Shown here in pieces: positions 25,552-38,436 of a stretch of 64,000 nt of DNA (position 1 is the stretch's first letter; every line of letters begins with the position of its first letter). The notes beneath the pieces are model-generated. The model was given only the letters and a program-made list of their open reading frames with translations, searched no databases and was not told the origin of the DNA. Location: NCBI GenBank assembly GCA_036337435.1, contig JAYZEG010000063.1, forward strand, positions 37,991 to 101,990, given 5' to 3'. Origin of the DNA: Myxococcota bacterium. Its GTDB lineage: Bacteria; Myxococcota_A; Bradymonadia; UBA7976; UBA1532. The translations under genes and the position numbers were made by a program.

Positions 25552-26469
25552 CTATCCGTAGAGGAGTTGAGCGCATTGATTGGCAAACGACCAAAAAAAG
25601 TCATCTCCGAAAAAAAGAGCCTCCAATGCCGCCAAGGATAGGAAGGGACCGTAGGGAATGACCGTTCTGGACGGGTGTCCTTGGTCTGCGTATTTCTCAT
25701 CCTCTCCGAAGTATGCATCTAATTGGTCTGTTGTCGTCGTGAGCGTGTCTTCTGCACCCGTCAGCTTGCTGTACAAGCGAACCAGGAAAACGGCAAGCAA
25801 CGCTTGTACGGAGCTTGCAAAAATCACAAATGCGAGGGGTTTCCAGCCCAGGAAAGCACCGATTAAGGCCATCAATTTGGCATCACCCAGCCCGAGTGCC
25901 TCTCGCTTGAAGATCAACCAGCCGAGGCCAAAGATAGCCAGCATGAATCCTGACCCCACCGCGGCCCCTATCAGGGCTGTCTGACCGCTATACATGGGCA
26001 GCAAAAAGGCACCTCCAATCCCAATCGCTGTACCGGGGATACTCAGTTCATCGGGGATGAAAAAATACTCTAGGTCGATGAAAATGATCACGACCAGTGC
26101 GTAGATAAAGGTCTGTAACCAAATCCAATGAGCGAAGTTGAGCCAAAGGGTCTCGGGGTCGAATGTTTTAAAGACGGCGCGAAATAGCACAAGGCTCATG
26201 ATGCCGCAGGCGCATTCGATAAGCGCATAGCGTGGACTAAACACTGCACCACAGGCTCTGCATCGCCCCCGCAAAATTAGATAACTCAAGCAGGGAATAT
26301 TATCGTACCAGCGGATGGGCACTTCGCATGTGCTACAGCGAGAGCCAGGATTGACCAGAGATATCCCCTCGGGGAGACGATAAATCACGACATTGAGGAA
26401 GCTACCCCAAGCCGTTCCCCAGAAAAACGCGATCAAGAACAAGAGCGTTATGGCTGGGGAGTCTAGCAT
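25552..26469 (-). CDS. pilD: Type IV prepilin peptidase/N-methyltransferase
   Basis: GSFLNVVIYRLP, CxxC...CxxC, FIDLE, LGLGDAKL, PYGPFL. Confidence 0.95.
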   Translation of the reverse strand: MLDSPAITLLFLIAFFWGTAWGSFLNVVIYRLPEGISLVNPGSRCSTCEVPIRWYDNIPCLSYLILRGRCRACGAVFSPRYALIECACGIMSLVLFRAVFKTFDPETLWLNFAHWIWLQTFIYALVVIIFIDLEYFFIPDELSIPGTAIGIGGAFLLPMYSGQTALIGAAVGSGFMLAIFGLGWLIFKREALGLGDAKLMALIGAFLGWKPLAFVIFASSVQALLAVFLVRLYSKLTGAEDTLTTTTDQLDAYFGEDEKYADQGHPSRTVIPYGPFLSLAALEALFFGDDFFWSFANQCAQLLYG

Positions 26470-28940
26470 CACCGGACCTGTATCGAACCAAGCCGAGCGC
26501 GATTTTGTTTATCGCTTGGACCAGATTTGATCTTCATCCGCGTGCTGGACCGATATAGACCTGCATAGAACGTAAACCGAGCGGGTGTGATGGTTCGTTT
26601 GATATTAATCTTATGGATGTCTCGAATCAGATCGCCTTTCTTCCAGTTTCGGGTTGGGAACAGGCCTGCGACCGGATCATGGTCACCGTGTATCCGTTGA
26701 CCGGGCGCATCGATGTGGACAAATACCTTCCAGGTCGACTGGGTCTTTGCTTTCGACTTCCAGAACATATGCAACTCAGCGGGAGACCCACTTTTTGGCT
26801 GTTTGGGCTCAACTTTCCAACCGACCAACTCGATCTTATCCTCGAAGTTAATGTTCACTTTGGTGACACCGTCGGGCAGTTCGTCGATCAAGGCATTGGT
26901 GATGGGATTTTTATCGATCACACCGTCATCTATTTTGTTTGAAACGAGGAAATAACGTGAACCTCGGTCATCGAGAACGGGAAGCGTTCGACCTGTCGCC
27001 CGTCTAAACTCCACGTTTACAGTGGCCAAATCCTTTCTGGGGATCAGCGCAAAGAAACGGTCAGAGCCCTTCGCCAACCTCGCAAATTCGGTGGACGTTT
27101 TTAACTTGGGCAAATCTCGAGAATAAAATGAATTAGTCTGATTCGACAGTCTATAGGTGTACAGTTTCTCATCACCATCAGCGACGTTCTTGTACACGTT
27201 GAGCACCTCTTTTTGGGAGAAGTTGGTACTCAGTTCGCTGGCGATGGGTACATTGAAGAAAACGAGCCAGGACATCAGTACGGTCAACAGTATGAGAGTC
27301 GATATGGGAGCACCTGTCAAACGTCTCATCGTACCGGACACAGTCGACTGGCCATCGATGGTGTCTCGTACCCAAGTTGACGTTCTCGATAAAACACCTT
27401 CTGTTCTGCCTTTCAGCATTTTGGTTCGGATGTAGCAAACCAACCAAATACCAATATAGGCGAGTAGGCCAAACGCCAGGGCGATGACCAACCGTCGAAA
27501 CCAGAATTGTAGATTGCCCCATCCGTCACCGCGCACCAGCGGGTCTAAGGTGGTCCTGCGCTGGAGCAAGAGAATCGGAACAAGAGCCGCCATACCGAAA
27601 ATGGCCAAGTCAAAATAGGGACGCCGACGTAGCGGATAAGCGAAGTACTGAATAAATCCAGCGAGCCAATGGTGAAGCCGTGCTTGGTAAAGCAAAATAT
27701 AGGCGATCAACGCGAAGTTTAAAAAGCGTGCGATTCTCCAATAGGGGAGGTACGCAGGAAATGAGTCGATGGATGTCCCGACAATCGTATCGGCGAGTAA
27801 GCGTGTTTCGTGCTTCAAGTTACTATCGAGTAGGGCCAGAATGATCACGGCGATGACAGCCAGGACGGGATTTGGGTCTTGTTTAGGCATTCGACCTAGA
27901 TAGAGCCCGATGGCAAATGCGGCGGCAGGTGCAGCGAGAAAAATACCAAAATGGCTGTAGCCAGCTCCAAGAGCAGGGGCAATAAAGCCCGCTAATATCC
28001 AAACGAAGAGAACAGCCCCCAGACCGGATTGGTCATTGGATTCTTGCTTGCTCCACAGCAGCGTGAGCAATGCCAATGGCAAGAGGGCTCCAAAGGGGAA
28101 AAGACCGAACCCAATCTGATGGACAAATTCGTTAAAGGATGGGCGGGTTGTCCCTGTTGTTGCATGAATATTATCAGCCCACAGAAAGAGAGACTCCAAG
28201 GCTGCATTGCCGGGCATGTAGATGGAGGCTCGCCACCAGCCCAGCCCGACGACGGTCAGGGCAACAGCCGCTGAGCCCCATCGCAGCGTGGTCGAGCGAG
28301 ACTCTGTACCAAGTCCGTAGCCGGACAAGGTGATGCAGACGGCGATGGGAATGGCCAAAGCCGGGACGCCTCCAGACAGTCCAGACAGTGCAGTCAGCCC
28401 CCAAGCCCCTATCCAAATGAGCCGTCCATGACAAAATCGACTTTGGATGAAGGCGAGACAGGCACATGTGGTTGCGACCAATGTTGTGGACTGGCCCAAG
28501 GCCAACCAATGGTGAAAAGAGAAGAGCGGCAGGCTCAAGAGAATGATGGCACTCCACCAAGTTACGGTCCGGCTTGCAAAGCGACGAACAACCACCATCA
28601 TGAAAAATAAAGTCAGTGCTCCAAAGATGATCCCGGGCAGTCGAAGAGATAATGTGGATACGCCCAGTAACGAGACGCTGCCAGCAACAGGCCAATAAGC
28701 GAATGGCAAGTCAGACACAGCATGGGCCTTGGCATGATTGCCCTGGCCAACATTAACTTCCAACCAACGTCCATTCTCGACCATATGATTGGCGACAGCG
28801 GAGATATTGGCTTCCCAGGGTTCCCATACACCAAATTGTGTCGCCGCAGTTGCGAGGACGCCCAATGCCAAAAGGCCGCCGATTAAAGGGTCCAAGCGCG
28901 CGGGCCATAAGCCACTGTGTGTCTGCTGTTCATCTGTCAT
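26469..28940 (-). CDS. GT-C (ArnT/PMT, GT39-like) membrane glycosyltransferase with C-terminal soluble domain
   Basis: WEPWEA...MVENGRW, PFAYW...SLLGVSTLSLRLP N-terminal pattern, many TMs, C-terminal NFEDKIELVG...WKVFVH...DHDP domain; TGATG overlap with pilD. Confidence 0.75.
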   Translation of the reverse strand: MTDEQQTHSGLWPARLDPLIGGLLALGVLATAATQFGVWEPWEANISAVANHMVENGRWLEVNVGQGNHAKAHAVSDLPFAYWPVAGSVSLLGVSTLSLRLPGIIFGALTLFFMMVVVRRFASRTVTWWSAIILLSLPLFSFHHWLALGQSTTLVATTCACLAFIQSRFCHGRLIWIGAWGLTALSGLSGGVPALAIPIAVCITLSGYGLGTESRSTTLRWGSAAVALTVVGLGWWRASIYMPGNAALESLFLWADNIHATTGTTRPSFNEFVHQIGFGLFPFGALLPLALLTLLWSKQESNDQSGLGAVLFVWILAGFIAPALGAGYSHFGIFLAAPAAAFAIGLYLGRMPKQDPNPVLAVIAVIILALLDSNLKHETRLLADTIVGTSIDSFPAYLPYWRIARFLNFALIAYILLYQARLHHWLAGFIQYFAYPLRRRPYFDLAIFGMAALVPILLLQRRTTLDPLVRGDGWGNLQFWFRRLVIALAFGLLAYIGIWLVCYIRTKMLKGRTEGVLSRTSTWVRDTIDGQSTVSGTMRRLTGAPISTLILLTVLMSWLVFFNVPIASELSTNFSQKEVLNVYKNVADGDEKLYTYRLSNQTNSFYSRDLPKLKTSTEFARLAKGSDRFFALIPRKDLATVNVEFRRATGRTLPVLDDRGSRYFLVSNKIDDGVIDKNPITNALIDELPDGVTKVNINFEDKIELVGWKVEPKQPKSGSPAELHMFWKSKAKTQSTWKVFVHIDAPGQRIHGDHDPVAGLFPTRNWKKGDLIRDIHKINIKRTITPARFTFYAGLYRSSTRMKIKSGPSDKQNRARLGSIQVR

Positions 28941-29100: not shown

Positions 29101-30597
29101 CTAGAATCCCAGTTCAATACAGAGGCCCTCAGGCGTATTTGGAATCTGAAAGCAGGTGAATCCAGGGTGACAGCCGACGAGAAGGTCGGGCGAGAAAATG
29201 TCATCGGGATTGACCTTCCGGCATGAACATGCGGCACTCATCGAGAGCGGGTTTAATGTACAAGTACCACCCGGCGCGCAGACGCCTTCGCCGCCAGGAC
29301 CCGGATCGCAGGTCCCGTCGCGATAAAAACACTGCCCAGTTTGAACGTTACAGTCCATGGTCTCAGCATCTGTACAATCTGCAGCGTTATTACAACCTGG
29401 CTCGCATCGCCCTGTTTGAACGCTACATTGAGAGCCCATCTGGCATGTGAGCCCAGCACAGGGCGCACTCTCGCAGGCAAAGGTATCTAAATTACAGGCT
29501 GAGCGGGCGGGGCAATCTGTGTCATCAAGACATTCGACGCAGCTCCCTTGCAGACAAATGGGTCTGCCACCACATGTTTCACACTGGGAATCATTCCCGC
29601 ATTCGCATGGCTCACTGCCTGTACATGTGTTTGTCGCCTGGTCGCAAAACTCGCCGATGGGGCAAGGCGTGTCATTGCTGCATTCGCCGCACTCACCTGT
29701 CTCGGCGATACACGCAGGCGTGGGATCTTGGCAGCGTCCTCCGCAACTATCGCACCGTCCACCGTTGGGCGCACACACACCGTCTGTGCAGGTATAATCG
29801 GCTGGGCAGACATTGCCGTTGGCGCAGGTCTTTAAGCAGAAATTCCCATTTTGAGTGGGTCGGCAAACATGGTCGTCTGTACAGCTTGAATCGGTCGTGC
29901 ATGCCTCGCAGCTCCCCCGGGGCATCACGCACTGTCCATTGCTCGAATCGCAGGCCAAACCAGCTTCGCAGCGTCGACCAGGACAGACGGTGCAATCATA
30001 ATTTACGGGAACACATTGGCCCAGTTGTTCTAGGCATGTAAAACCCTCTGGACAGGCTTCGAGTCCCTCGCCACAGGCTGTTGTGCAAAAGCTACCCGTG
30101 TTACCGATTGGCGTGCACTCAGCACCGTCGCCCAATGCATCACAATCACGGTCTGTATTACAGGTTTGGCAGAGCCCTTGGTAGCTGGCCCCACCCGCAT
30201 CGGTTTGCCCTACGCCGGCATCCCGCGCACTCATACCCATATCTGTATTGATGACGAGAACATCGGCGGTCACCGTGGGTTCTGGTGCACATGACCATAG
30301 ATACGGACCGTCATCGACGCAGACTTGTCCATCGGGACACGTGAGGATACCGTCCCCGCATTCTCGACGAGAACAACTGTTGGTCGCTTGTACACAGACA
30401 CGGCCCGATCCTGGACATTCTCCCAGGCTTTGGCATGGTTCCGAGACGCATTCTTTTGATTCATCGTCGCAAATTAAGCCTCGGCTGCAATCAGCGTCTG
30501 CATTACAACTCTGAGGCTCATCGTCAGAACAGCCTGTCGCAACAGAGAGCAGAGCACCCAGTAGAATGATGGTCTTTACTGAAAATAAACTACGCAT
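29101..30597 (-). CDS. Cysteine-rich repeat lipoprotein
   Basis: Lipobox VATGC; about 70 further Cys in CxxDxDC/CxxGxxC repeats; DAG/DMG linker. Confidence 0.85.
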   Translation of the reverse strand: MRSLFSVKTIILLGALLSVATGCSDDEPQSCNADADCSRGLICDDESKECVSEPCQSLGECPGSGRVCVQATNSCSRRECGDGILTCPDGQVCVDDGPYLWSCAPEPTVTADVLVINTDMGMSARDAGVGQTDAGGASYQGLCQTCNTDRDCDALGDGAECTPIGNTGSFCTTACGEGLEACPEGFTCLEQLGQCVPVNYDCTVCPGRRCEAGLACDSSNGQCVMPRGSCEACTTDSSCTDDHVCRPTQNGNFCLKTCANGNVCPADYTCTDGVCAPNGGRCDSCGGRCQDPTPACIAETGECGECSNDTPCPIGEFCDQATNTCTGSEPCECGNDSQCETCGGRPICLQGSCVECLDDTDCPARSACNLDTFACESAPCAGLTCQMGSQCSVQTGRCEPGCNNAADCTDAETMDCNVQTGQCFYRDGTCDPGPGGEGVCAPGGTCTLNPLSMSAACSCRKVNPDDIFSPDLLVGCHPGFTCFQIPNTPEGLCIELGF

Positions 30598-30842: not shown

Positions 30843-31433
30843 ATGAGTAATCTCAAGATTCCAGATGTTTTTTCGACGCATTCCGCGGCTAAATATTGTC
30901 GTGTCACGCCCATGACCATCATTCGCTGGATCGAAGAGGGCAGAATTAAAGCTTATAAGACCCCCGGGGGGCATCGTCGGATTATGCGTGGCGACTTGGA
31001 CGAGTTTTGTCGAGCGACGGGCATTCCTATCGAATGGGACACCCGTGGTAATCAAGGTCCGAAACGCGTCTTGGTCATCGATGATGATGAGCATTCGGTT
31101 AACTCAATTTTGGATGCCCTTTTGGATGCTGAGGGCGACGACTCCATGGTGACCTTCAAGATCGCGCACACAGACAATGCGTTTGATGCCGGCATGATGA
31201 TGCGAGATCTAAAACCAGAAATCATTTTTCTCGATCTTGACCTCGCAGGCACCGACCCTGTTCGGCTCATCGCATCCATACGTCATGATGCCGATCTACG
31301 AGATTGTCGGGTCGTTGGTATTGCCTCGGAACAGACGCCAGCAAACATGCCGGTCGACCGCGTACTGCATCGACCATTGGCCCGCGGAGCCGTCCGGCAA
31401 GCAACGGGTCCAATGCCCATCGTCAAAATTTAG
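30843..31433 (+). CDS. Excisionase/MerR-type HTH + receiver response regulator
   Basis: FSTHSAAKYCRVTPMTIIRWIEEGRIKAYKTPGGHRRI, then VLVIDDD...IIFLDL. Confidence 0.88.
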   Translation: MSNLKIPDVFSTHSAAKYCRVTPMTIIRWIEEGRIKAYKTPGGHRRIMRGDLDEFCRATGIPIEWDTRGNQGPKRVLVIDDDEHSVNSILDALLDAEGDDSMVTFKIAHTDNAFDAGMMMRDLKPEIIFLDLDLAGTDPVRLIASIRHDADLRDCRVVGIASEQTPANMPVDRVLHRPLARGAVRQATGPMPIVKI

Positions 31434-31600: not shown

Positions 31601-32503
31601 ATGAATCGCTCAATCGGCGTACGAAGTCTCATTTCCGCGGGTATTAACAAGTTAAAAGCACCGACAGATGAGATCCCGATTACAGGGAATCGGCGTGCCT
31701 TGGTCATGGCTATAGCAGCGCAGAAAGGCGGCGTCGGTAAGACGACGACGACAGTCAACCTCGCGTGTGCTTGGGCAAAGCAATCAAAGTATCGAATTCT
31801 TGTCATCGATATCGACCCACAGGGTCATGTCTCGTCGTCGCTGAGAGAAAACATCAAGCCGGCGTCATCGACGTTGACCGAAATTCTTTTGGCCGACAGA
31901 CCGCGGGACATCTTGGATGCAGTGTTTCAAACCAATCTGCCAAATTTGAGTTTAACGGCGGCTGATAAAGGACTCGCCGAAACCGATGCTCAACTGGCGA
32001 GTCGAGTTGGGCGGGAATACATTCTCAAGAGCGCCATCGCCAACGCGAGGAGCCATTACGACATTATTTTGATCGATTGTCCGCCAAATTTAGGAAATCT
32101 GACCCTCAATGCACTCGTCGCTGCCGATTGTGTCTTGGTCCCGTGTGACATGAGCATTCTCGCCTTCGAAGGTGTCGCCGATCTTCTTGGGACTGTTCGA
32201 ACCGTAAACTTAAGGCTTGGTCAGAACTTGGATATTGCAGGGATTATTCGAACGCGGGTTGACGGACGCACTCGGCAAATTAACGACGCCATCGGTGGTG
32301 CTCTTCGAGACAACTATGGCGAGCTGCTGCTGGACACTGTGATTCCAATTAACTCAGCTTTAGCGAAAGCTCAGGCGGCCGGTCTCAGCATCTTTGAGTT
32401 CCAGGCTCGTTCTCGGGGGGCAGAAGCCTATCTTTCTCTGTCCAATGAACTGGAAGCCCGTCTATCGCTGGGCGCAGATCAGGTTCATGCCTCGACCTTT
32501 TAA
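31601..32503 (+). CDS. ParA/Soj family ATPase (no adjacent parB)
   Basis: QKGGVGKTTT, IDIDPQG, IDCPPNLG, ALVAAD. Confidence 0.93.
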   Translation: MNRSIGVRSLISAGINKLKAPTDEIPITGNRRALVMAIAAQKGGVGKTTTTVNLACAWAKQSKYRILVIDIDPQGHVSSSLRENIKPASSTLTEILLADRPRDILDAVFQTNLPNLSLTAADKGLAETDAQLASRVGREYILKSAIANARSHYDIILIDCPPNLGNLTLNALVAADCVLVPCDMSILAFEGVADLLGTVRTVNLRLGQNLDIAGIIRTRVDGRTRQINDAIGGALRDNYGELLLDTVIPINSALAKAQAAGLSIFEFQARSRGAEAYLSLSNELEARLSLGADQVHASTF

Positions 32504-32629: not shown

Positions 32630-34642
32630 TTGAACCCCAGTTCATCAACGTCAAAGCGCATCAAACGGGTTCCGAAAGCAGCACCTAAGGCGGGGCGTAA
32701 GCGCAGGCAGCGTGAGCCGGTACCCGTCACCGTGGATTTACTGCGATCGACGCCGTTTTTTGCTCACCTGCCGCAACCTTACCTCGATGCGTTGGTGTCC
32801 CGTGCAGAGCATGTTGAATTGGCGCGTGGAGAACATGCCTTTAATGGCCGACCGCTTGGTGGGCAGGACATGACTCTCTTTCTCGTTCTCTTTGGAGACC
32901 TCAGTGTTCACAGAACCCAGAATAAAGGGCCGGAGGAAACGGCGAATTATCTGACCGTCGGCGACTTCTTTGTTGAAAGGTTGATCGTCGATGACGACAC
33001 AAAATCAATTAGGCTGACGGCCATGTGTCCAGTGCGCGTTTTGAAGTTCAGCTATGCTGATTTCAATGTGCTGCTTCGCGATCACGACGAGTTGAGAAAC
33101 AGTTTTTCTGAGCGAATCCGCACGGTTGTCGACCGCCAAAAGTCTCGGTTCGATGATAAGTTCCAAAAAGAGATAGCCCGATTTCTGGTACAGGAAAGAC
33201 TGACTTTTGCTGGGCGGGTCAAGCTCAAACGGATGGATTTATGCATCGAGTGCGACGGCTGCTATTCAGCCTGTAAAGACCGCCATGGGACCGATCGTCT
33301 TGGTCCTAGTGAAGTTAAATACGGTCTCACTGAGATTCCCCAGAACTGTCACAATTGCGTAGTGCCTGAATGCATGGACAAATGTAAATTCGGGCACATC
33401 GGGCGGCATGCCATCACAGGTGAGATCGTCATCGATGACAACTGCATTGGCTGCACAATGTGCAGTAAAGGGTGCAGCTTTGGGTCCATTCGGATGCACC
33501 CGATCGATGAATTGGACATGGAAAAATATTTTCCGAACCGCTCCCCTGACGCAAAGGGCAAGGCGATTGCTCAGAAATGCGATAATTGTACTGGCTATGA
33601 AGATAAAGCCTGTATTTCGGCATGTCCTACGGGTGCATTATTTCAGCTAGATGGCGTGGAGCTGTTTGAGAATTGGCGACAATTTAGCCCGCAATCGCAA
33701 AACGATGGTGCGACGATTGAGAGTCCCAATGAGTTCCCCTATCGATGGCGCCAATTTTGGGTCGCGCTGACCGTTTCTGTAACCCTATTTCTGGCTTGGG
33801 AATGCTTCGGCCGTTTGTATTGGCCAAAGGTCACATTTGCAGAGTTATTCTTTCAACTCGGCTGGTCTGCATCGGGTGTTGATCCAGTGGTCCCTTTTCG
33901 TGCCGGAGATTTCTTCAGTCACGCGCTCGGTTACATCGGTGGCGGATTGATGCTGGGGACTCAAGTATACCGATTAAGGGGTCGATTCAGCACGACACCT
34001 GTCTTGATGGAGGCCCATATTTGGATGGGTGTGATCGGTTTCATCATGGCGTTTTTTCACACCGCTTTTGTGTTTAGTGATCCTATCGCTGTCGCCACTT
34101 TCCTGACCATGTTTTTGGCTGTCGTCACTGGGACAATTGGCCGCTACGTTGTCTACATCGTCCCGAGAAATAAGCATGGCCATGAGCTTCTCTTGTATGA
34201 AGTTAACGATCGAATCAGTGAGGTCAGTAGACAAATAGAGGGCGTTTTCTCGGATCCAAGCGTTGGCCACACTGCAATCGTCAGGTTAAAAGACATCCTT
34301 GGACAAGAGAAAAATGAAACGGCGTTGGCGTCTTCAGAGTCCCGCGGCTGGCGGTCCTTCATCTCGCTCCTTGTCGACCTGATTCGACGCGATGCGTTGA
34401 CGAAAAAACGTGTTTCAGACCTTGCAAGTGAGTTAAGCCAAGGGTTTGAAGATGCAAACCAGACTACGCTCCTCGAGACGCTCATGACGGAAAAGAGTCG
34501 GTTGGAGCGTGCGATTGTTCAGCATGCATTTTTGTCCAAGGTCTTAAAACGGTATCGAATTGTCCATGTCACCAGCAGCAATATTATGTTTGGAGCACTG
34601 ATTCTCCATATTGTTTTCGCGTTGATGTATCAGGTCAATTGA
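32630..34642 (+). CDS. Fusion: cNMP-binding-like domain + four-cluster NrfC/DmsB-type ferredoxin + putative di-heme cytochrome b membrane domain
   Basis: LRSTPFFAHL...LFLVLFGDLSV...GDFF (CNB fold); CIECDGCYSAC, CHNCVVPECMDKC, CIGCTMCSKGC, CDNC...CISACP; TM helices with HIWMGVIGFIMAFFH and HVTSSNIMFGALILH. Confidence 0.85.
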   Translation: MNPSSSTSKRIKRVPKAAPKAGRKRRQREPVPVTVDLLRSTPFFAHLPQPYLDALVSRAEHVELARGEHAFNGRPLGGQDMTLFLVLFGDLSVHRTQNKGPEETANYLTVGDFFVERLIVDDDTKSIRLTAMCPVRVLKFSYADFNVLLRDHDELRNSFSERIRTVVDRQKSRFDDKFQKEIARFLVQERLTFAGRVKLKRMDLCIECDGCYSACKDRHGTDRLGPSEVKYGLTEIPQNCHNCVVPECMDKCKFGHIGRHAITGEIVIDDNCIGCTMCSKGCSFGSIRMHPIDELDMEKYFPNRSPDAKGKAIAQKCDNCTGYEDKACISACPTGALFQLDGVELFENWRQFSPQSQNDGATIESPNEFPYRWRQFWVALTVSVTLFLAWECFGRLYWPKVTFAELFFQLGWSASGVDPVVPFRAGDFFSHALGYIGGGLMLGTQVYRLRGRFSTTPVLMEAHIWMGVIGFIMAFFHTAFVFSDPIAVATFLTMFLAVVTGTIGRYVVYIVPRNKHGHELLLYEVNDRISEVSRQIEGVFSDPSVGHTAIVRLKDILGQEKNETALASSESRGWRSFISLLVDLIRRDALTKKRVSDLASELSQGFEDANQTTLLETLMTEKSRLERAIVQHAFLSKVLKRYRIVHVTSSNIMFGALILHIVFALMYQVN

Positions 34643-34792
34643 GGCTAAAATAACCGGAAAGCGGGACGGCTAACAGCTTCGCCAATGCGGCACCAACGGG
34701 GAATGTTTGAGTTAATTAGCGTCCGATGATGACCATAATCGAAAAAATAGCTACGATCGCCGTTAAAGTTACCACAGGATACGCACGGTTAT

Positions 34793-37117
34793 ATGGGGCG
34801 CCCCTCGGCACAGACTAGGTCAGTCACTCGTCGGTTTGTTCTGCCAACCATCGTTTTTTGGCCGCTGTTGATTCTTTGTTTCAACTCTCAGGTTTTCGCT
34901 GTCGGGCCCTTATCGACCCCACATGCTCGCTATGACAACAATAACGATTGTACTAAGTGCCACGACATTTTTGGGGGCATGCCCAATCGAAACTGCCTTA
35001 ATTGTCACAAACGCATTGGCCAGCGGATCAGTGCTCGTAAAGGGTACCATGGGCGCAATGCAGTTGGCGCCAAGTGTCATGATTGTCATCGTGAACATCG
35101 CGGGCGTGGCTATGGGATAACCCAACTCAATAGGCGAACTTTTGACCACAATCTCACGGGTTGGTCGCTCACGGGTGGTCATACACGTGTTCCATGCCGG
35201 GAATGTCACAGCGCAAAGCGACCAGGGACGAACCGGGACAGTTATCTTGGGGCACCAACGAACTGTAATGGCTGTCATGGGAGCTATCATGGCCAAGGCC
35301 AAAAAGCGGAGTTGAATCGCTGCCAGGATTGCCACAACACCACAAGCTGGGCGTCTCTCAACGATAAATTGAGATTCAATCATAACACACAAACAAATTT
35401 TCCTTTGACTGGCCTTCATCGACAAGCATCCTGTGATAAATGTCATCTCGGCAAGCGTAACTTCGGACCAATTGAGGTTTCAGGCTGTGTAAGTTGTCAC
35501 AAAAACCCCCATCCGGTCGGTGTATTTGGATCACCGCGCAAGTGTGAAGAATGTCATGTGACCAGCGGGTTTAAGAAGACCAATGTCTTCGACCATTCTA
35601 CGGCTGGTTGGACTCTTCGTGGTAAACATGCAGTGAATGCATGTACCGATTGCCACTCCTGGGAGAAATGGCGACCACCAACCAACGATTGCCGCGGGTG
35701 TCATGTCGACGTCCACAAGGGGCAATTTGGTCGACAGCGATGCGACAGCTGTCACAAACAGACCGGGTTTACGGGACGGCATTTGAAGTTCAATCATAAC
35801 ACCATGAGTCGGTTCCCACTGAAGGGGCGGCATACGCGCGTCGATTGTGTCAGTTGCCACCCCGGTGGCACCTACAAGCCATTGCCCATGGAATGCGCGG
35901 ATTGTCATCAAGATGACAATCCGCATGGAGATACTTTCGGTGAGACACCATGCAGTAATTGTCACTCGCCCGTCGATTGGATGAAGACCCGTTTTGATCA
36001 CAGTGTGACTGGATTCGCACTTGAAGAGCGTCATGCCGAGCAGCCCTGTTATCGTTGCCACCCGAACGGAACTGAAATTGAAGATGACACGGAAAGGCGC
36101 TGTTCGTTTTGCCACACGGACGTCCATCAAGGCCAATTCGAAGCCCCGCTGGACCAATTAAATCGGTCCCTGGCGTCCCAGTCCCAGCAGGCATCTGATG
36201 GCTGTGAAAAATGTCATTCGGGTTTTCGGTCCTGGAAAATTCCATTCTTTGACCACAATATCAGTCAATTTGCGCTCACTGGGCAGCACCAGACGGTGCC
36301 TTGTTCAGGGTGTCACACGGAGGGACATTTCAAGCCCATTGATACAGCCTGTGCGAATTGTCATTACAATTTCCACGAGGGGCAGTTCAGTCAACCGTGT
36401 GACCAATGTCACACAACAAAAGCCTGGGCACCGTTGGAGGGATTCGACCACAACACCAGAACGGACTATCGCTTGGATGGCCGTCATGAAGAGGTCGATT
36501 GCGGCAAATGTCATATCGACAACATCTATACAGACACGCCGCAGGCATGTGGAGATTGTCACGTCGATGTCCATAAGGGAAAGCTTGGTCCGGGTTGTGA
36601 CCGCTGCCATGGCGTTGAGGATTGGTCAATCAACACGATGCAAGACCATGATTTCGGCGCATTCCGACTGGGTGGCGTTCACGACCTATTGCCCTGCGAG
36701 GAGTGTCACGGTCCAGATCGAAAGGAGACGCAAGCTGGACGAGGTCCCGAATGCGTAAACTGTCATCGAGATCCCCATTTCGGGAGCTTTGGACCTCAAT
36801 GTTTCGAATGTCACAATCAACAAGCTTTCTTGCCAAGTACCTTTCTTCACGCTGAAACGGGCTTCCGACTGTCTGGAGCACATCGTTTTGTTGAATGCCG
36901 GGATTGTCATCCTGGGCGTGTTTTCGGCGGGTTGCCCAATGATTGTTTCTTCTGTCATACACAAGATTTCAACGCGACCGCCGGCAGTAAGCTCTGCGAT
37001 CACACAGCGTGCATTCCAGGCGGGTTAGACACCTGTCACAATTGTCATCGGTCAACAAGTTTCATCCCAGCGCGGCCCGGCTCCGGGTGCGGGGTTTGCG
37101 AGGTCAATGGCCGATGA
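34793..37117 (+). CDS. Exported multiheme cytochrome c with 30 CxxCH motifs
   Basis: Signal peptide; 30 CxxCH counted by hand, arranged as triheme repeats FDHxxTxFxLxGxH-CxxCH-CxxCH-xxH-CxxCH. Confidence 0.95.
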   Translation: MGRPSAQTRSVTRRFVLPTIVFWPLLILCFNSQVFAVGPLSTPHARYDNNNDCTKCHDIFGGMPNRNCLNCHKRIGQRISARKGYHGRNAVGAKCHDCHREHRGRGYGITQLNRRTFDHNLTGWSLTGGHTRVPCRECHSAKRPGTNRDSYLGAPTNCNGCHGSYHGQGQKAELNRCQDCHNTTSWASLNDKLRFNHNTQTNFPLTGLHRQASCDKCHLGKRNFGPIEVSGCVSCHKNPHPVGVFGSPRKCEECHVTSGFKKTNVFDHSTAGWTLRGKHAVNACTDCHSWEKWRPPTNDCRGCHVDVHKGQFGRQRCDSCHKQTGFTGRHLKFNHNTMSRFPLKGRHTRVDCVSCHPGGTYKPLPMECADCHQDDNPHGDTFGETPCSNCHSPVDWMKTRFDHSVTGFALEERHAEQPCYRCHPNGTEIEDDTERRCSFCHTDVHQGQFEAPLDQLNRSLASQSQQASDGCEKCHSGFRSWKIPFFDHNISQFALTGQHQTVPCSGCHTEGHFKPIDTACANCHYNFHEGQFSQPCDQCHTTKAWAPLEGFDHNTRTDYRLDGRHEEVDCGKCHIDNIYTDTPQACGDCHVDVHKGKLGPGCDRCHGVEDWSINTMQDHDFGAFRLGGVHDLLPCEECHGPDRKETQAGRGPECVNCHRDPHFGSFGPQCFECHNQQAFLPSTFLHAETGFRLSGAHRFVECRDCHPGRVFGGLPNDCFFCHTQDFNATAGSKLCDHTACIPGGLDTCHNCHRSTSFIPARPGSGCGVCEVNGR

Positions 37118-38436
37118 ATGCGACTCTGCATAGGCGTGTTTGGTGCTGTGTTCTAATGCTTTCCGTCGCCCAAGCTCAGAACGAAGACTGGTCCGTTGAT
37201 GGTAGAATTGCCTCCCGTAGTCTCTATTCTACGGCTGACGGCCCCGTTTCCAAAGATGTGGTGTTCCAGTTCGTCGACTTGGATCTAGAGGCTGAGCATA
37301 TGGGGGTTTTTGATACCTCACTTACGCTGGACGCCACCATCCTCTGGGATATTAGTGAAGCTCAGGAACGGAGGTTTGGCGAGACACAGTCATTCCAACA
37401 ACTCAGACAGCTGTATCTCCAACAGGCAGTGGGCCAAAAATGGTCTGTGTCGGCCGGTCGCCGCATTATCTTTCAAGCCGGAAACGCTTGGGTCGATGGC
37501 CTTGATATTCAGCTTAAATTGAACAACGCCATCATGGTGGGTGCCTACGGCGGATTACGACCTGATCCAAATAGCTACAAGCCAACAACGACCTATCAGA
37601 CCTTGGGCACCTATTCGAGTTATAAACGGGACGGACTGAATATTGAATTCGGTTACAACCTGATTTTGAGAGACGGCTTAGATCGTCAATTTCTCTATGG
37701 ACGCACCCACTATCGGTTGTCACCTGGACTCTATGTAAATGTCTACTCGGTGGTGGATACACTGGATGAAATCGAGCCTGTGACATTCTTGTCGACTCTT
37801 GATTATACGCCAACAAAGGCCGTGAATCTCTCGCTTAATTATACGCGGTACAGCATTGAAGCCTACCGAAACCAAGCCATCTATCGCAATGTAGTCCGGC
37901 TCAATCAAGCCTTGTTGCTTGGTGATGAAATTATTGATCTGGTCTATAATCGGGTGCGCCTATCAGGGTCTTATCGATTTTGGCGACGCTACTATCATTA
38001 TCAAACTATCGAATACAAAAGGCGGAGCCAAGACAGGAGGCAATCTTGGGCCTATATCATTGGTATCCGGAACAACAATCTCTGGTCTACTGGAACCCGT
38101 CTCGACCTCCGAACGACTCTGAGAAATAATTTTCAGAGCGATTCCTGGTTGATTGCAGGCGATCTGGAGAAAGACGTTTTATTGGAGTTGACCCTCAACT
38201 TGCACGGGACAGTTTTTGACGGCCGAACCATAGACCGCTTCACCGAACGAGGCCGTACCTTTGATGAGGCGCAGCGGATTTACTTGATGGGCGGATCTTT
38301 GTTTTGGAGGCCATCGCGAGCGCATCATCTGAGCTTGACCTACGATGGTGTCTACGAAACAGACCTGATCGATCAACGAAACGACGCTGCGCTGTTCATT
38401 CACACTGGCCTATTCAGGTACGCGTACCACTTTTGA
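37114..38436 (+). CDS. Outer-membrane beta-barrel (putative cytochrome-associated porin)
   Basis: ATGA overlap with the cytochrome stop, signal peptide ending AQA, alternating amphipathic Tyr-rich strands, C-terminal beta-signal FRYAYHF. Confidence 0.8.
   Translation: MNATLHRRVWCCVLMLSVAQAQNEDWSVDGRIASRSLYSTADGPVSKDVVFQFVDLDLEAEHMGVFDTSLTLDATILWDISEAQERRFGETQSFQQLRQLYLQQAVGQKWSVSAGRRIIFQAGNAWVDGLDIQLKLNNAIMVGAYGGLRPDPNSYKPTTTYQTLGTYSSYKRDGLNIEFGYNLILRDGLDRQFLYGRTHYRLSPGLYVNVYSVVDTLDEIEPVTFLSTLDYTPTKAVNLSLNYTRYSIEAYRNQAIYRNVVRLNQALLLGDEIIDLVYNRVRLSGSYRFWRRYYHYQTIEYKRRSQDRRQSWAYIIGIRNNNLWSTGTRLDLRTTLRNNFQSDSWLIAGDLEKDVLLELTLNLHGTVFDGRTIDRFTERGRTFDEAQRIYLMGGSLFWRPSRAHHLSLTYDGVYETDLIDQRNDAALFIHTGLFRYAYHF

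Follow-up and report, generated by a model that had tools for sequence, protein, structure and literature searches.

The DNA analysed here is a 64,000-nucleotide stretch of a Myxococcota bacterium (contig JAYZEG010000063.1 of assembly GCA_036337435.1), which as a whole we call the window, and our subject is a cluster of three consecutive genes that it carries on the plus strand between positions 32,630 and 38,436. Gene 1 encodes a cytoplasmic-looking ferredoxin fused to a membrane domain, gene 2 an exported multihaem cytochrome c and gene 3 an outer-membrane beta-barrel. Sequence, conservation and structural models lend good support to the view that the cluster encodes an electron conduit, and from these we infer its cofactor binding, topology, direction, donor and acceptor. 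With moderate confidence we favour a fuller reading, in which the cluster would be a trans-envelope conduit of the porin-cytochrome type whose inner-membrane module acts as a transmembrane wire rather than as a quinol oxidase, with electrons flowing outward. The features on which the argument depends are the following.

32630..34642, plus strand: gene 1, predicted fusion of a cyclic-nucleotide-monophosphate (cNMP)-binding-like domain, a four-[4Fe-4S] ferredoxin and a dihaem-b domain with five transmembrane (TM) helices; 670 aa, TTG start
32720..33211, plus strand: cNMP-binding-like domain (CRP/PKG-type beta-roll) of gene 1, residues 31-194, from Pfam and fold matches
33212..33712, plus strand: predicted four-cluster [4Fe-4S] ferredoxin "wire" domain of gene 1, residues 195-361, with 16 invariant Cys
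33722..34639, plus strand: membrane domain of gene 1, residues 365-670, with five TM helices and two H-x13-H helices, from the model and the alignment
34793..37117, plus strand: gene 2, exported cytochrome c with 30 haems in ten trihaem units of the c7 type, 774 aa
36650..37060, plus strand: segment of the cytochrome modelled inside the barrel, gene 2 residues 620-756, the interface of the complex model
37114..38436, plus strand: gene 3, 22-strand plugless outer-membrane beta-barrel, 440 aa, ATGA-coupled to gene 2

The original prediction, made from the letters of the DNA, had given gene 1 a CNB-like domain, four sets of Fe-S cysteines and a membrane domain with two H-x13-H helices, and all of these parts were recovered. 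PF00027 (cNMP_binding) matches residues 82-151 (E 4.6e-7, 30.2 bits against a Pfam cut-off of 27.5), the model folds like CRP, FNR and PKG over residues 31-194 (VIA Z 14.6-10.3), and among 78 homologues G89 is invariant, G111 nearly invariant and E/D112 conserved. The ferredoxin part is matched by Fer4_7 at residues 271-336 (E 1.7e-7, above the cut-off) and below the cut-off by Fer4_11 (PF13247; E 1.6e-4, 22.3 bits against 26.2), a family that the precomputed Pfam column annotates in several gene 1 homologues. Sixteen cysteines are invariant in alignments of 19 and of 78 homologues and fall into four sets (C205/208/211/215, C240/243/248/252, C272/275/278/282 and C317/320/328/332), so that four [4Fe-4S] clusters are predicted from their ligands. 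The profile of this domain matches HycB3 of the hydrogen-dependent CO2 reductase (7qv7_A, E 4.3e-16, query residues 201-345) as well as HycB4 and formate hydrogenlyase subunit 2, with 7z0s_B at E 8.8e-11, and the corresponding part of the model has a VIA match in 9mqx_E (Z 10.6). A match of gene 1 to NCBIfam HydN (E 2.3e-9) lies far under the equivalog cut-off and points to a relation at the level of the domain only. The gene is single-copy in the genome.

The full AlphaFold2 model of gene 1 (78 homologues, mean pLDDT 84.3) places TM helices at residues 371-397, 428-449, 456-478, 485-510 and 609-668, with a helical insert at residues 515-603 that separates TM4 from TM5. In a 27-row alignment of the membrane domain, H463-x13-H477 on TM3 and H646-x13-H660 on TM5 are invariant, as are E391, G501, G504 and R505, and the alignment as a whole reads W-x3-H...x13...H on TM3, (T/S)GxxGR on TM4 and (W/Y)-x3-H...x13...H on TM5; gene 1 of the window deviates from the motif, with L and Y for both W and T for S. 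Family assignments of this domain are weak for gene 1 itself, with DUF4405 (PF14358) at E 0.031 (15.2 bits against a cut-off of 26.7) and Ferric_reduct at E 0.7, and the relative P0148 passes DUF4405 with 33.5 bits against the same cut-off of 26.7. Inspection by eye found no signal peptide or Tat h-region before the cNMP/Fe-S half, and located clusters of Arg and Lys before TM1, in the TM2-TM3 loop and after TM4 of the modelled helices. Because of this basic loop pattern and the missing signal peptide, the Fe-S domain should be cytoplasmic and the C-terminus periplasmic, and this predicted topology would put His463 and His646 near the inner face of the membrane and His477 and His660 near its outer face. 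So arranged, the two His pairs would have the geometry of a two-haem transmembrane wire.

Gene 2, for which the original prediction had counted 30 CxxCH motifs in an exported protein, carries exactly that number, at spacings of about 16/17-19/33 residues that repeat with a period of three motifs. PF14522 (Cytochrome_C7) covers eight stretches of it (E 1e-35, 121.8 bits against a Pfam cut-off of 24.8), its N-terminus resembles a signal peptide by eye, and its alignment contains many invariant His outside CxxCH, the putative distal ligands. No PDB sequence matches it at E<=0.01. Among open reading frames (ORFs) of at least 80 aa seen between 30600 and 38600, gene 2 is the only one with a CxxCH motif; across the genome 17 ORFs have at least three, the second-largest after gene 2 having 11 and lying on another contig (C66), and cytochrome c maturation genes are present. 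The recorded protein of the contig opens gene 2 at an internal GTG (residue 256) and is thereby 519 aa long, losing the signal peptide and 9 of the 30 haem motifs with the N-terminal 255 codons (34793-35557). The gene 2 of the nearest Bradymonadia relative is likewise called short (534 aa), and the Atlas record of the barrel begins at residue 15, dropping 37114-37155; homologue alignments favour the longer forms of both gene 2 and the barrel.

The longest ORF of gene 3 runs from 37009 to 38436. Its ATG at 37114, which overlaps the TGA of gene 2 (37115-37117), begins an N-terminus that resembles a signal peptide, and the protein ends in ...YAYHF, in line with the ATGA-coupled barrel with a terminal Phe that had been described at the outset. 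AlphaFold2 (24 homologues) predicts a 22-strand barrel without a plug (mean pLDDT 82.8, pTM 0.74). The best VIA matches of this model are barrels of TonB-dependent transporters, FyuA (Z 18.2, root-mean-square deviation (rmsd) 5.5, 358 aligned residues), Cir (Z 17.8) and BtuB (Z 17.7), whose 22-strand barrels enclose a plug domain; MtrB (6r2q_B) follows at rank 19 (Z 15.7, rmsd 6.7, 339 aligned), and Foldseek returned generic outer-membrane barrels. No Pfam family, MtrB/PioB PF11854 included, matches gene 3 at E<=0.1, and neither does any NCBIfam model.

We then predicted the complex of cytochrome residues 300-774 with barrel residues 24-440 in three runs alongside 3 controls. The pair reached an ipSAE of 0.78 (runs 0.76, 0.80 and 0.78) against 0.00 for the best control, and the runs share at least 66% of their contacts with a partner pLDDT of at least 80. 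This mark is reached by 116 of 157 solved complexes and by 2 of 215 mismatched pairs, a rough yardstick for the present score, which was obtained with custom alignments. At the interface, cytochrome residues 620-756 face alternating lumen-facing residues on strands all round the barrel, and the model thus supports binding of the C-terminal part of the cytochrome in the barrel lumen. The width of the barrel had been a point of concern from the outset; 22 strands, no plug and a controlled complex model with the cytochrome in the lumen together suggest that it is wide enough.

The survey of co-conservation that had been proposed for these genes was carried out with one genome per species and gave 39 loci, two of which are Treponema ferredoxins and were set aside. 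Twenty-six are of a myxobacterial type (gene 1 identity 42-91%; records titled Myxococcales, Bradymonadia or Myxococcota), and in 17 of these the order gene 1, cytochrome, barrel is complete; 4 end at a contig edge and 5 have no cytochrome and barrel at that place. In all 5 genomes with such unlinked loci the barrel is encoded at another place (E<=1e-140), and in 3 of them, the three that a simple ORF caller could read, a multihaem ORF precedes it. The order is kept in six Bdellovibrionota-type loci as well (gene 1 identity 26-28%), where a 27-haem-class cytochrome is followed by weak matches to the barrel (E 2e-6 to 2e-14). All 20 myxobacterial-type orthologues of gene 2 that were aligned have 30 CxxCH motifs, and three Bdellovibrionota-type ones have 26-27, one trihaem unit fewer. 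A haem count fixed at 30 fits the need of a wire that spans a distance, and together with the conserved gene order it places the three-gene set beyond chance. The 4-nt overlap of genes 2 and 3 recurs in L004, L008, L033, L034 and L036. When 301 genomes of the phylum were sampled, a full-length gene 1 turned up in 12 of the 14 from the family to which the window belongs and in the only one (1/1) from a sister family, and in none of the 27 and 8 from two other families of the class.

Some loci differ in detail. In L036 (7815-9795), from a Bdellovibrionota metagenome-assembled genome (MAG), three separate ORFs (166, 267 and 237 aa) make up the gene 1 homologue, with a 24-haem gene and a 467-aa barrel-like ORF ending in Phe intact downstream; the split may be a frameshift, an assembly error or decay. 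In L004 (5560-7592) two additional genes (254 and 417 aa, no CxxCH) separate the cytochrome from gene 1, and in several Bdellovibrionota-type loci this position is occupied by one or two small ORFs (160-235 aa) that look secreted. In L035 (764-4574), a Haliangiales MAG, a gene 1 relative with 28% identity and no N-terminal part is divergent from a 28-haem cytochrome and a 494-aa ORF, and may represent another arrangement of the same parts.

Relatives of the membrane domain bear on what gene 1 is wired to. A profile of this domain, searched against 1.84 billion representative proteins (clusters at 50% identity), matched 4391 representatives at E<=1e-3, 2641 at E<=1e-10 and 319 at E<=1e-30. Most matches are stand-alone proteins of 270-330 aa, and 23 of the best 150 have at least 550 aa; in the long matches scanned, Fer4 was found in 14 of 14 and a recognisable cNMP domain in two besides, and one relative (P0263) joins Fer4, Pyr_redox_3/2 and the membrane domain in one chain. 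A word-indexed search for shorter stand-alone relatives returned 22 matches, each of them a fragment of a member of this family. The N-terminal half of gene 1 is in turn homologous (E 1e-17 to 1e-26) to proteins of about 800 aa that combine Pyr_redox, two cNMP domains and a four-cluster Fe-S domain. We scanned 80 metagenome loci encoding such a flavin-cNMP-FeS protein with hidden Markov models (HMMs) of the membrane domain and of the barrel. Directly downstream of the flavin-cNMP-FeS gene, 51 of the 80 encode a membrane-domain homologue of about 290 aa (E 1.8e-30 to 8.5e-13), which is followed by a 10-haem cytochrome in loci with enough downstream flank and preceded in many loci by a 4-haem cytochrome upstream; ORFs with at least three CxxCH occur in 51 of the 80. 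Homologues thus tie the cytoplasmic Fe-S wire proposed in the original prediction to a domain of the NAD(P)H/FAD type rather than to a quinol oxidase of the CymA, ImcH or CbcL type, and a flavin/NAD(P)H-type domain in both the split and the triple-fused relatives would therefore suggest a donor at the level of pyridine nucleotides. The HMM of the gene 3 barrel matched none of the 80 loci, many of which are short. Three of them (L113:11997-16041, L057:11797-15706 and L073:12486-16399) show, after the 10-haem cytochrome, two large secreted-looking ORFs of about 620-750 and 575-620 aa, the second ending in ...LILTY or ...LILAY in L113 and L057; these paired ORFs, unrelated to gene 3 by HMM, are candidates for a porin and its partner.

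The closest precedent is found in PCC3 and PCC4, porin-cytochrome clusters predicted by bioinformatics only and discovered in genomes of Fe(II) oxidisers (He, Barco, Emerson and Roden 2017, Front Microbiol 8:1584, PMC5566968). As described in the passages of that paper on these clusters, their inner-membrane protein of about 300 aa has five helices, WX3HX13H on TM3 and TM5 and SGXXG on TM4, the H-x13-H spacing being shared with the FRD domain, and in PCC4 subgroup II an Fe-S gene (pfam13247) lies directly upstream, with one genome annotating both as a single gene. The gene content of our 80 metagenome loci agrees with this description, and we therefore infer that they are PCC4. With PCC4, the window shares the inner-membrane signature with its five TM helices, the Fe-S partner (fused in the window), a porin and, as far as the described gene content goes, the absence of an extracellular cytochrome. 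It differs in having one 30-haem cytochrome where the description gives PCC4 three (4, 5 and 10 haems), in fusing the Fe-S and cNMP domains to the membrane protein without a flavin domain, in its barrel family, insofar as the window barrel HMM found 0 of 80 PCC4-like loci, the PCC4 porins themselves not having been compared, and in its hosts, which are aerobic marine and freshwater Myxococcota and Bdellovibrionota and not Fe(II) oxidisers. With PCC3, as described, it has in common the conserved 5-TM inner-membrane protein of about 300 aa, with the same motifs as gene 1, and a porin accompanied by a periplasmic cytochrome of great length, whose haem number (21, 24 or 27) is divisible by three as in the window and which in the relevant passage of Hoover et al. 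2023 (PMC10734462) is judged long enough to span the periplasm. PCC3 is set apart, again by description, by an additional extracellular multihaem cytochrome and by having no Fe-S partner, whereas the window cluster has one multihaem gene; a homologue search with gene 2 returned 5377 c7-polymer cytochromes from many phyla and was too unspecific for a link to PCC3. Judged from its gene content, the cluster is a fused, single-cytochrome variant of the predicted PCC3/PCC4 class, which is itself biochemically untested.

The original prediction had presented the system as unrecognised, and this stands for the exact cluster, for which we found no description in the literature, although PCC3 and PCC4 are a precedent and fusions of Fe-S and membrane domains are common, as the 23 long proteins among the best 150 matches attest. 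Supplementary Figures 3-4 and Tables 5-6 of He et al. may bear on this point. Skennerton et al. 2017 yielded no matching passage, PCC3 and PCC4 are unmentioned in the 2026 FEMS review, and a 2022 boreal-lake and a 2026 peat preprint report novel porin-cytochrome clusters of Myxococcota and Acidobacteriota in text that does not mention an FeS-cytochrome b partner, their supplements possibly being relevant.

Three neighbouring genes lie upstream of gene 1.

29101..30597, minus strand: Cys-rich probable lipoprotein, 498 aa with 71 Cys, lipobox ...VATGC by eye
30843..31433, plus strand: regulator with HTH_17/MerR-type DNA-binding and receiver domains (HTH_17 E 7.7e-10, Response_reg E 6.1e-5)
31601..32503, plus strand: ParA/MinD-like P-loop ATPase (AAA_31 E 1.1e-47, CbiA E 4.8e-24)

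Homologues of the lipoprotein (34-91% identity) are present in 25 of the 26 myxobacterial-type loci, 23 of which, including all five that lack cytochrome and barrel, have the homologue co-oriented with gene 1 and 24-302 bp upstream of it. It is inverted and about 2 kb from gene 1, with the regulator and the ParA-like ATPase between them, only in the window, L002 and L003, and this distribution indicates that a rearrangement moved it in the window and its two closest relatives. It was undetectable in the Bdellovibrionota-type loci (0 of 11). Of the three-gene unit originally proposed, co-conservation of the three genes stands, but the unit probably has four: the 71-Cys lipoprotein, outside the span first considered, is probably a fourth component and the ancestral first gene of the cluster. 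The protein has no Pfam match and its matches to PDB sequences are unrelated designed proteins at E ~0.9; the nearest named Atlas clusters are Myxococcota Cys-rich repeats of a Dickkopf_N/DUF7107-like kind (score 0.91), a lead only.

Taken together, four clusters on one side of the membrane and a cytochrome of periplasmic length on the other make a continuous chain from cytoplasm to surface the simplest reading. In the scheme we propose, a cytoplasmic reductant would load the four [4Fe-4S] clusters of gene 1, the place held in the split relatives by a fused FAD/NAD(P)H-type domain, and electrons would then pass to a haem b on the cytoplasmic side (His463/His646), to a second one on the periplasmic side (His477/His660) and on to the 30-haem c7-polymer cytochrome spanning the periplasm. 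The last ~130 residues of the cytochrome would sit inside the 22-strand barrel, with the terminal haems exposed at the cell surface to candidate acceptors such as extracellular Fe(III), Mn, organic matter or O2. [quoted passage not shown] Transfer from Fe-S clusters at the level of NAD(P)H or ferredoxin to c-type haems is downhill and is helped by the membrane potential, and the reverse is uphill on both counts; by analogy with NADPH oxidases (NOX) and ferric reductases, the net direction is for this reason most likely outward.

Other arrangements of the same parts have to be weighed against this outward wire. The cluster might be a quinone-coupled porin-cytochrome complex, in which the dihaem-b domain exchanges electrons with the quinone pool and the Fe-S/cNMP half is regulatory or a side branch. 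To our knowledge, all experimentally characterised conduits start at the quinone pool (Mtr with CymA; Geobacter with ImcH and CbcL), which favours such a scheme. He et al. 2017 also drew their PCC3/PCC4 models with a quinone link, and the same passages count the quinone-reactive cytochrome b of bc1 among the dihaem cytochromes b with H-x13-H (PMC5566968). The fused four-cluster wire and the flavin/NAD(P)H-type domain of the split relatives are hard to explain in this way, however; no quinone-site motif was identified, a search for one not having been made, and the weakly similar cytochromes of the DUF4405/MsrQ/PepSY type are described, in the part of Huang et al. 2024 that deals with them, as transmembrane electron carriers (PMC11334425). 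We consider quinone coupling unlikely. Inward uptake, from an extracellular donor such as Fe(II), Mn(II), reduced organic matter or a prey-derived reductant to the cytoplasm, is very improbable in our judgement. It would accord with the occurrence of PCC3 and PCC4 in Fe(II)-oxidiser genomes (as reported in the passages of PMC5566968 cited above) and with the statement in Hoover et al. 2023 (PMC10734462, relevant passage) that porin-cytochrome conduits run either way, but reduction of low-potential [4Fe-4S] clusters and NAD(P)+ across an inside-negative membrane would be uphill and against the potential. Between these two in probability, and to be regarded with considerable doubt, is a role of gene 1 mainly as a periplasmic supply of reductant in the manner of DsbD or MsrQ, with the lipoprotein or envelope proteins as clients and the cytochrome and barrel as a separable add-on. 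The lipoprotein is the tightest neighbour of gene 1, and because 5 of the 26 loci keep it and not the cytochrome and barrel, gene 1 may serve another periplasmic client. Against this, the Bdellovibrionota-type loci keep gene 1, cytochrome and barrel where no lipoprotein was detected, the barrel is still encoded in every one of the five unlinked genomes, and the split relatives place the membrane protein directly before the 10-haem cytochrome.

Several observations weigh against the outward conduit that we prefer. A flavin or NAD(P)H domain is present neither in gene 1 nor in its neighbours in the window, and nearby genes encode no donor; binding of haem b and of Fe-S clusters by gene 1 is predicted from invariant ligands; and when the full-length model of gene 1 was searched with Foldseek and VIA-align, the cNMP domain took up nearly all of both hit lists, which contain no solved structure matching the membrane domain. 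The modelled pair consists of cytochrome and barrel, gene 1 not being included, and that model is haem-free, covers cytochrome residues 300-774 only and may owe part of its score to the existing structure of MtrAB. The lipoprotein that stays beside gene 1 in the five unlinked loci counts on the same side. The phosphate-binding cassette of cyclic-nucleotide-binding domains has a conserved Gly-Glu and an Arg, and the candidate at the cassette-like position, Arg128, presumably follows a longer spacer than in CRP and is kept in only 52 of the 78 homologues, for which reason binding of a cyclic nucleotide by gene 1 is doubtful and the ligand control put forward in the original prediction is unproven. 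The lineage, moreover, is aerobic, with COX1 in 17 of 21 family genomes and in 11 of the 11 high-quality ones, and no physiological need for extracellular respiration is evident. COX1 (PF00115) and cytochrome bd (PF01654) were not found in the 87%-complete assembly of the window; COX1 is present in a complete genome of the same genus, and together with its presence in the family this led us to reject the conduit as a replacement of aerobic respiration. In an aerobic lineage the conduit is thus unlikely to be the main respiratory outlet, and iron acquisition, redox venting and surface oxidant production are possibilities for its use. Near-identical DNA was found in marine and seawater metagenomes from 13 studies, and no RNA data set was listed among the sequencing runs.

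Among better-known systems, MtrAB(C), MtoAB and PioAB resemble the window cluster in having a cytochrome sheathed by an outer-membrane barrel, MtrB being among the structural matches of gene 3 as noted above. Their inner-membrane entry is a quinol dehydrogenase of the NapC/CymA type, whereas in the window it would be the Fe-S/haem b protein; their cytochrome has 10 haems against 30 here, the MtrB barrel has 26 strands against 22 in gene 3, and gene 3 has no match to the MtrB/PioB Pfam family. Tmc and Hmc of sulfate reducers use a cytochrome b in the membrane to connect cytoplasmic Fe-S proteins with a multihaem cytochrome c in the periplasm, with no obligate quinone pool, but they are multi-subunit, have Fe-S proteins of the CCG type and lack an outer-membrane barrel. 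A weak NCBIfam match between gene 2 and HmcA (E 0.0018; 17 bits, the cut-off being 400) is the only sign of them at the sequence level in the window. The DUF4405, MsrQ and PepSY-like (FoxB) cytochromes, like NOX and ferric reductases, share with gene 1 four His on two helices and, as predicted for gene 1, two stacked haems and transmembrane transfer. Gene 1 departs from them in having five helices and a long cytoplasmic insert instead of six helices, and in its partners, an Fe-S wire and a multihaem cytochrome in place of flavinylated proteins or an FAD/NADPH domain in the same chain. Binding of haem b has been demonstrated for a DUF4405 protein, which is grouped with the MsrQ and PepSY-like transmembrane cytochromes (Huang et al. 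2024, PMC11334425, in the part concerned).

By their record titles the loci belong to Bradymonadia, Myxococcales and Bdellovibrionota, lineages that are largely predatory. A tentative extension of the outward conduit, which we think possible though improbable, is that in these aerobic, largely predatory lineages the cluster acts as a two-membrane bacterial analogue of NADPH oxidase or ferric reductase, a quinone-independent, cNMP-gated delivery of cytoplasmic reducing power to the cell surface. If true, its uses could be to attack prey with extracellular superoxide or to reduce Fe(III) so that it can be taken up where seawater is poor in iron, and it would account in molecular terms for some of the extracellular superoxide production and Fe(III) reduction that heterotrophs of oxic waters carry out with no enzymatic explanation so far. 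What aerobic water-column predators would use such a wire for is the question that it raises.

Possibly of more general interest is that a membrane-protein family appears to be wired to cytoplasmic Fe-S or flavin modules rather than to quinones. The cluster and its split relatives point to a widespread second conduit design, in which a cytoplasmic Fe-S or flavin/Fe-S module would feed a dihaem-b protein and then multihaem cytochromes, and which, with 4391 representative clusters at 50% identity, is not rare. The quinone link assumed in the published PCC3/PCC4 model would be revised by the present cluster. The fusion in the window is the most compact form seen, with two polypeptides and a barrel for a predicted ~36 redox centres, 32 of them haems, and this compactness recommends it for biochemistry, cryo-EM and synthetic electron export.

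The remaining neighbours are less closely tied to the cluster. In 20 of the 26 myxobacterial-type loci the regulator lies near gene 1, often on the opposite strand (tblastn), and the ParA-like ATPase likewise occurs near gene 1 in 20 of 26; both are usually divergent from the cluster and are absent from the Bdellovibrionota-type loci. A scan for promoters and terminators gave counts at or below the shuffled expectation and is therefore uninformative on operon structure. Further upstream, next to a prepilin peptidase gene, an 823-aa ORF on the minus strand (26469-28940) has only a weak match to PMT_2, a glycosyltransferase-39-like family (E 0.0012).

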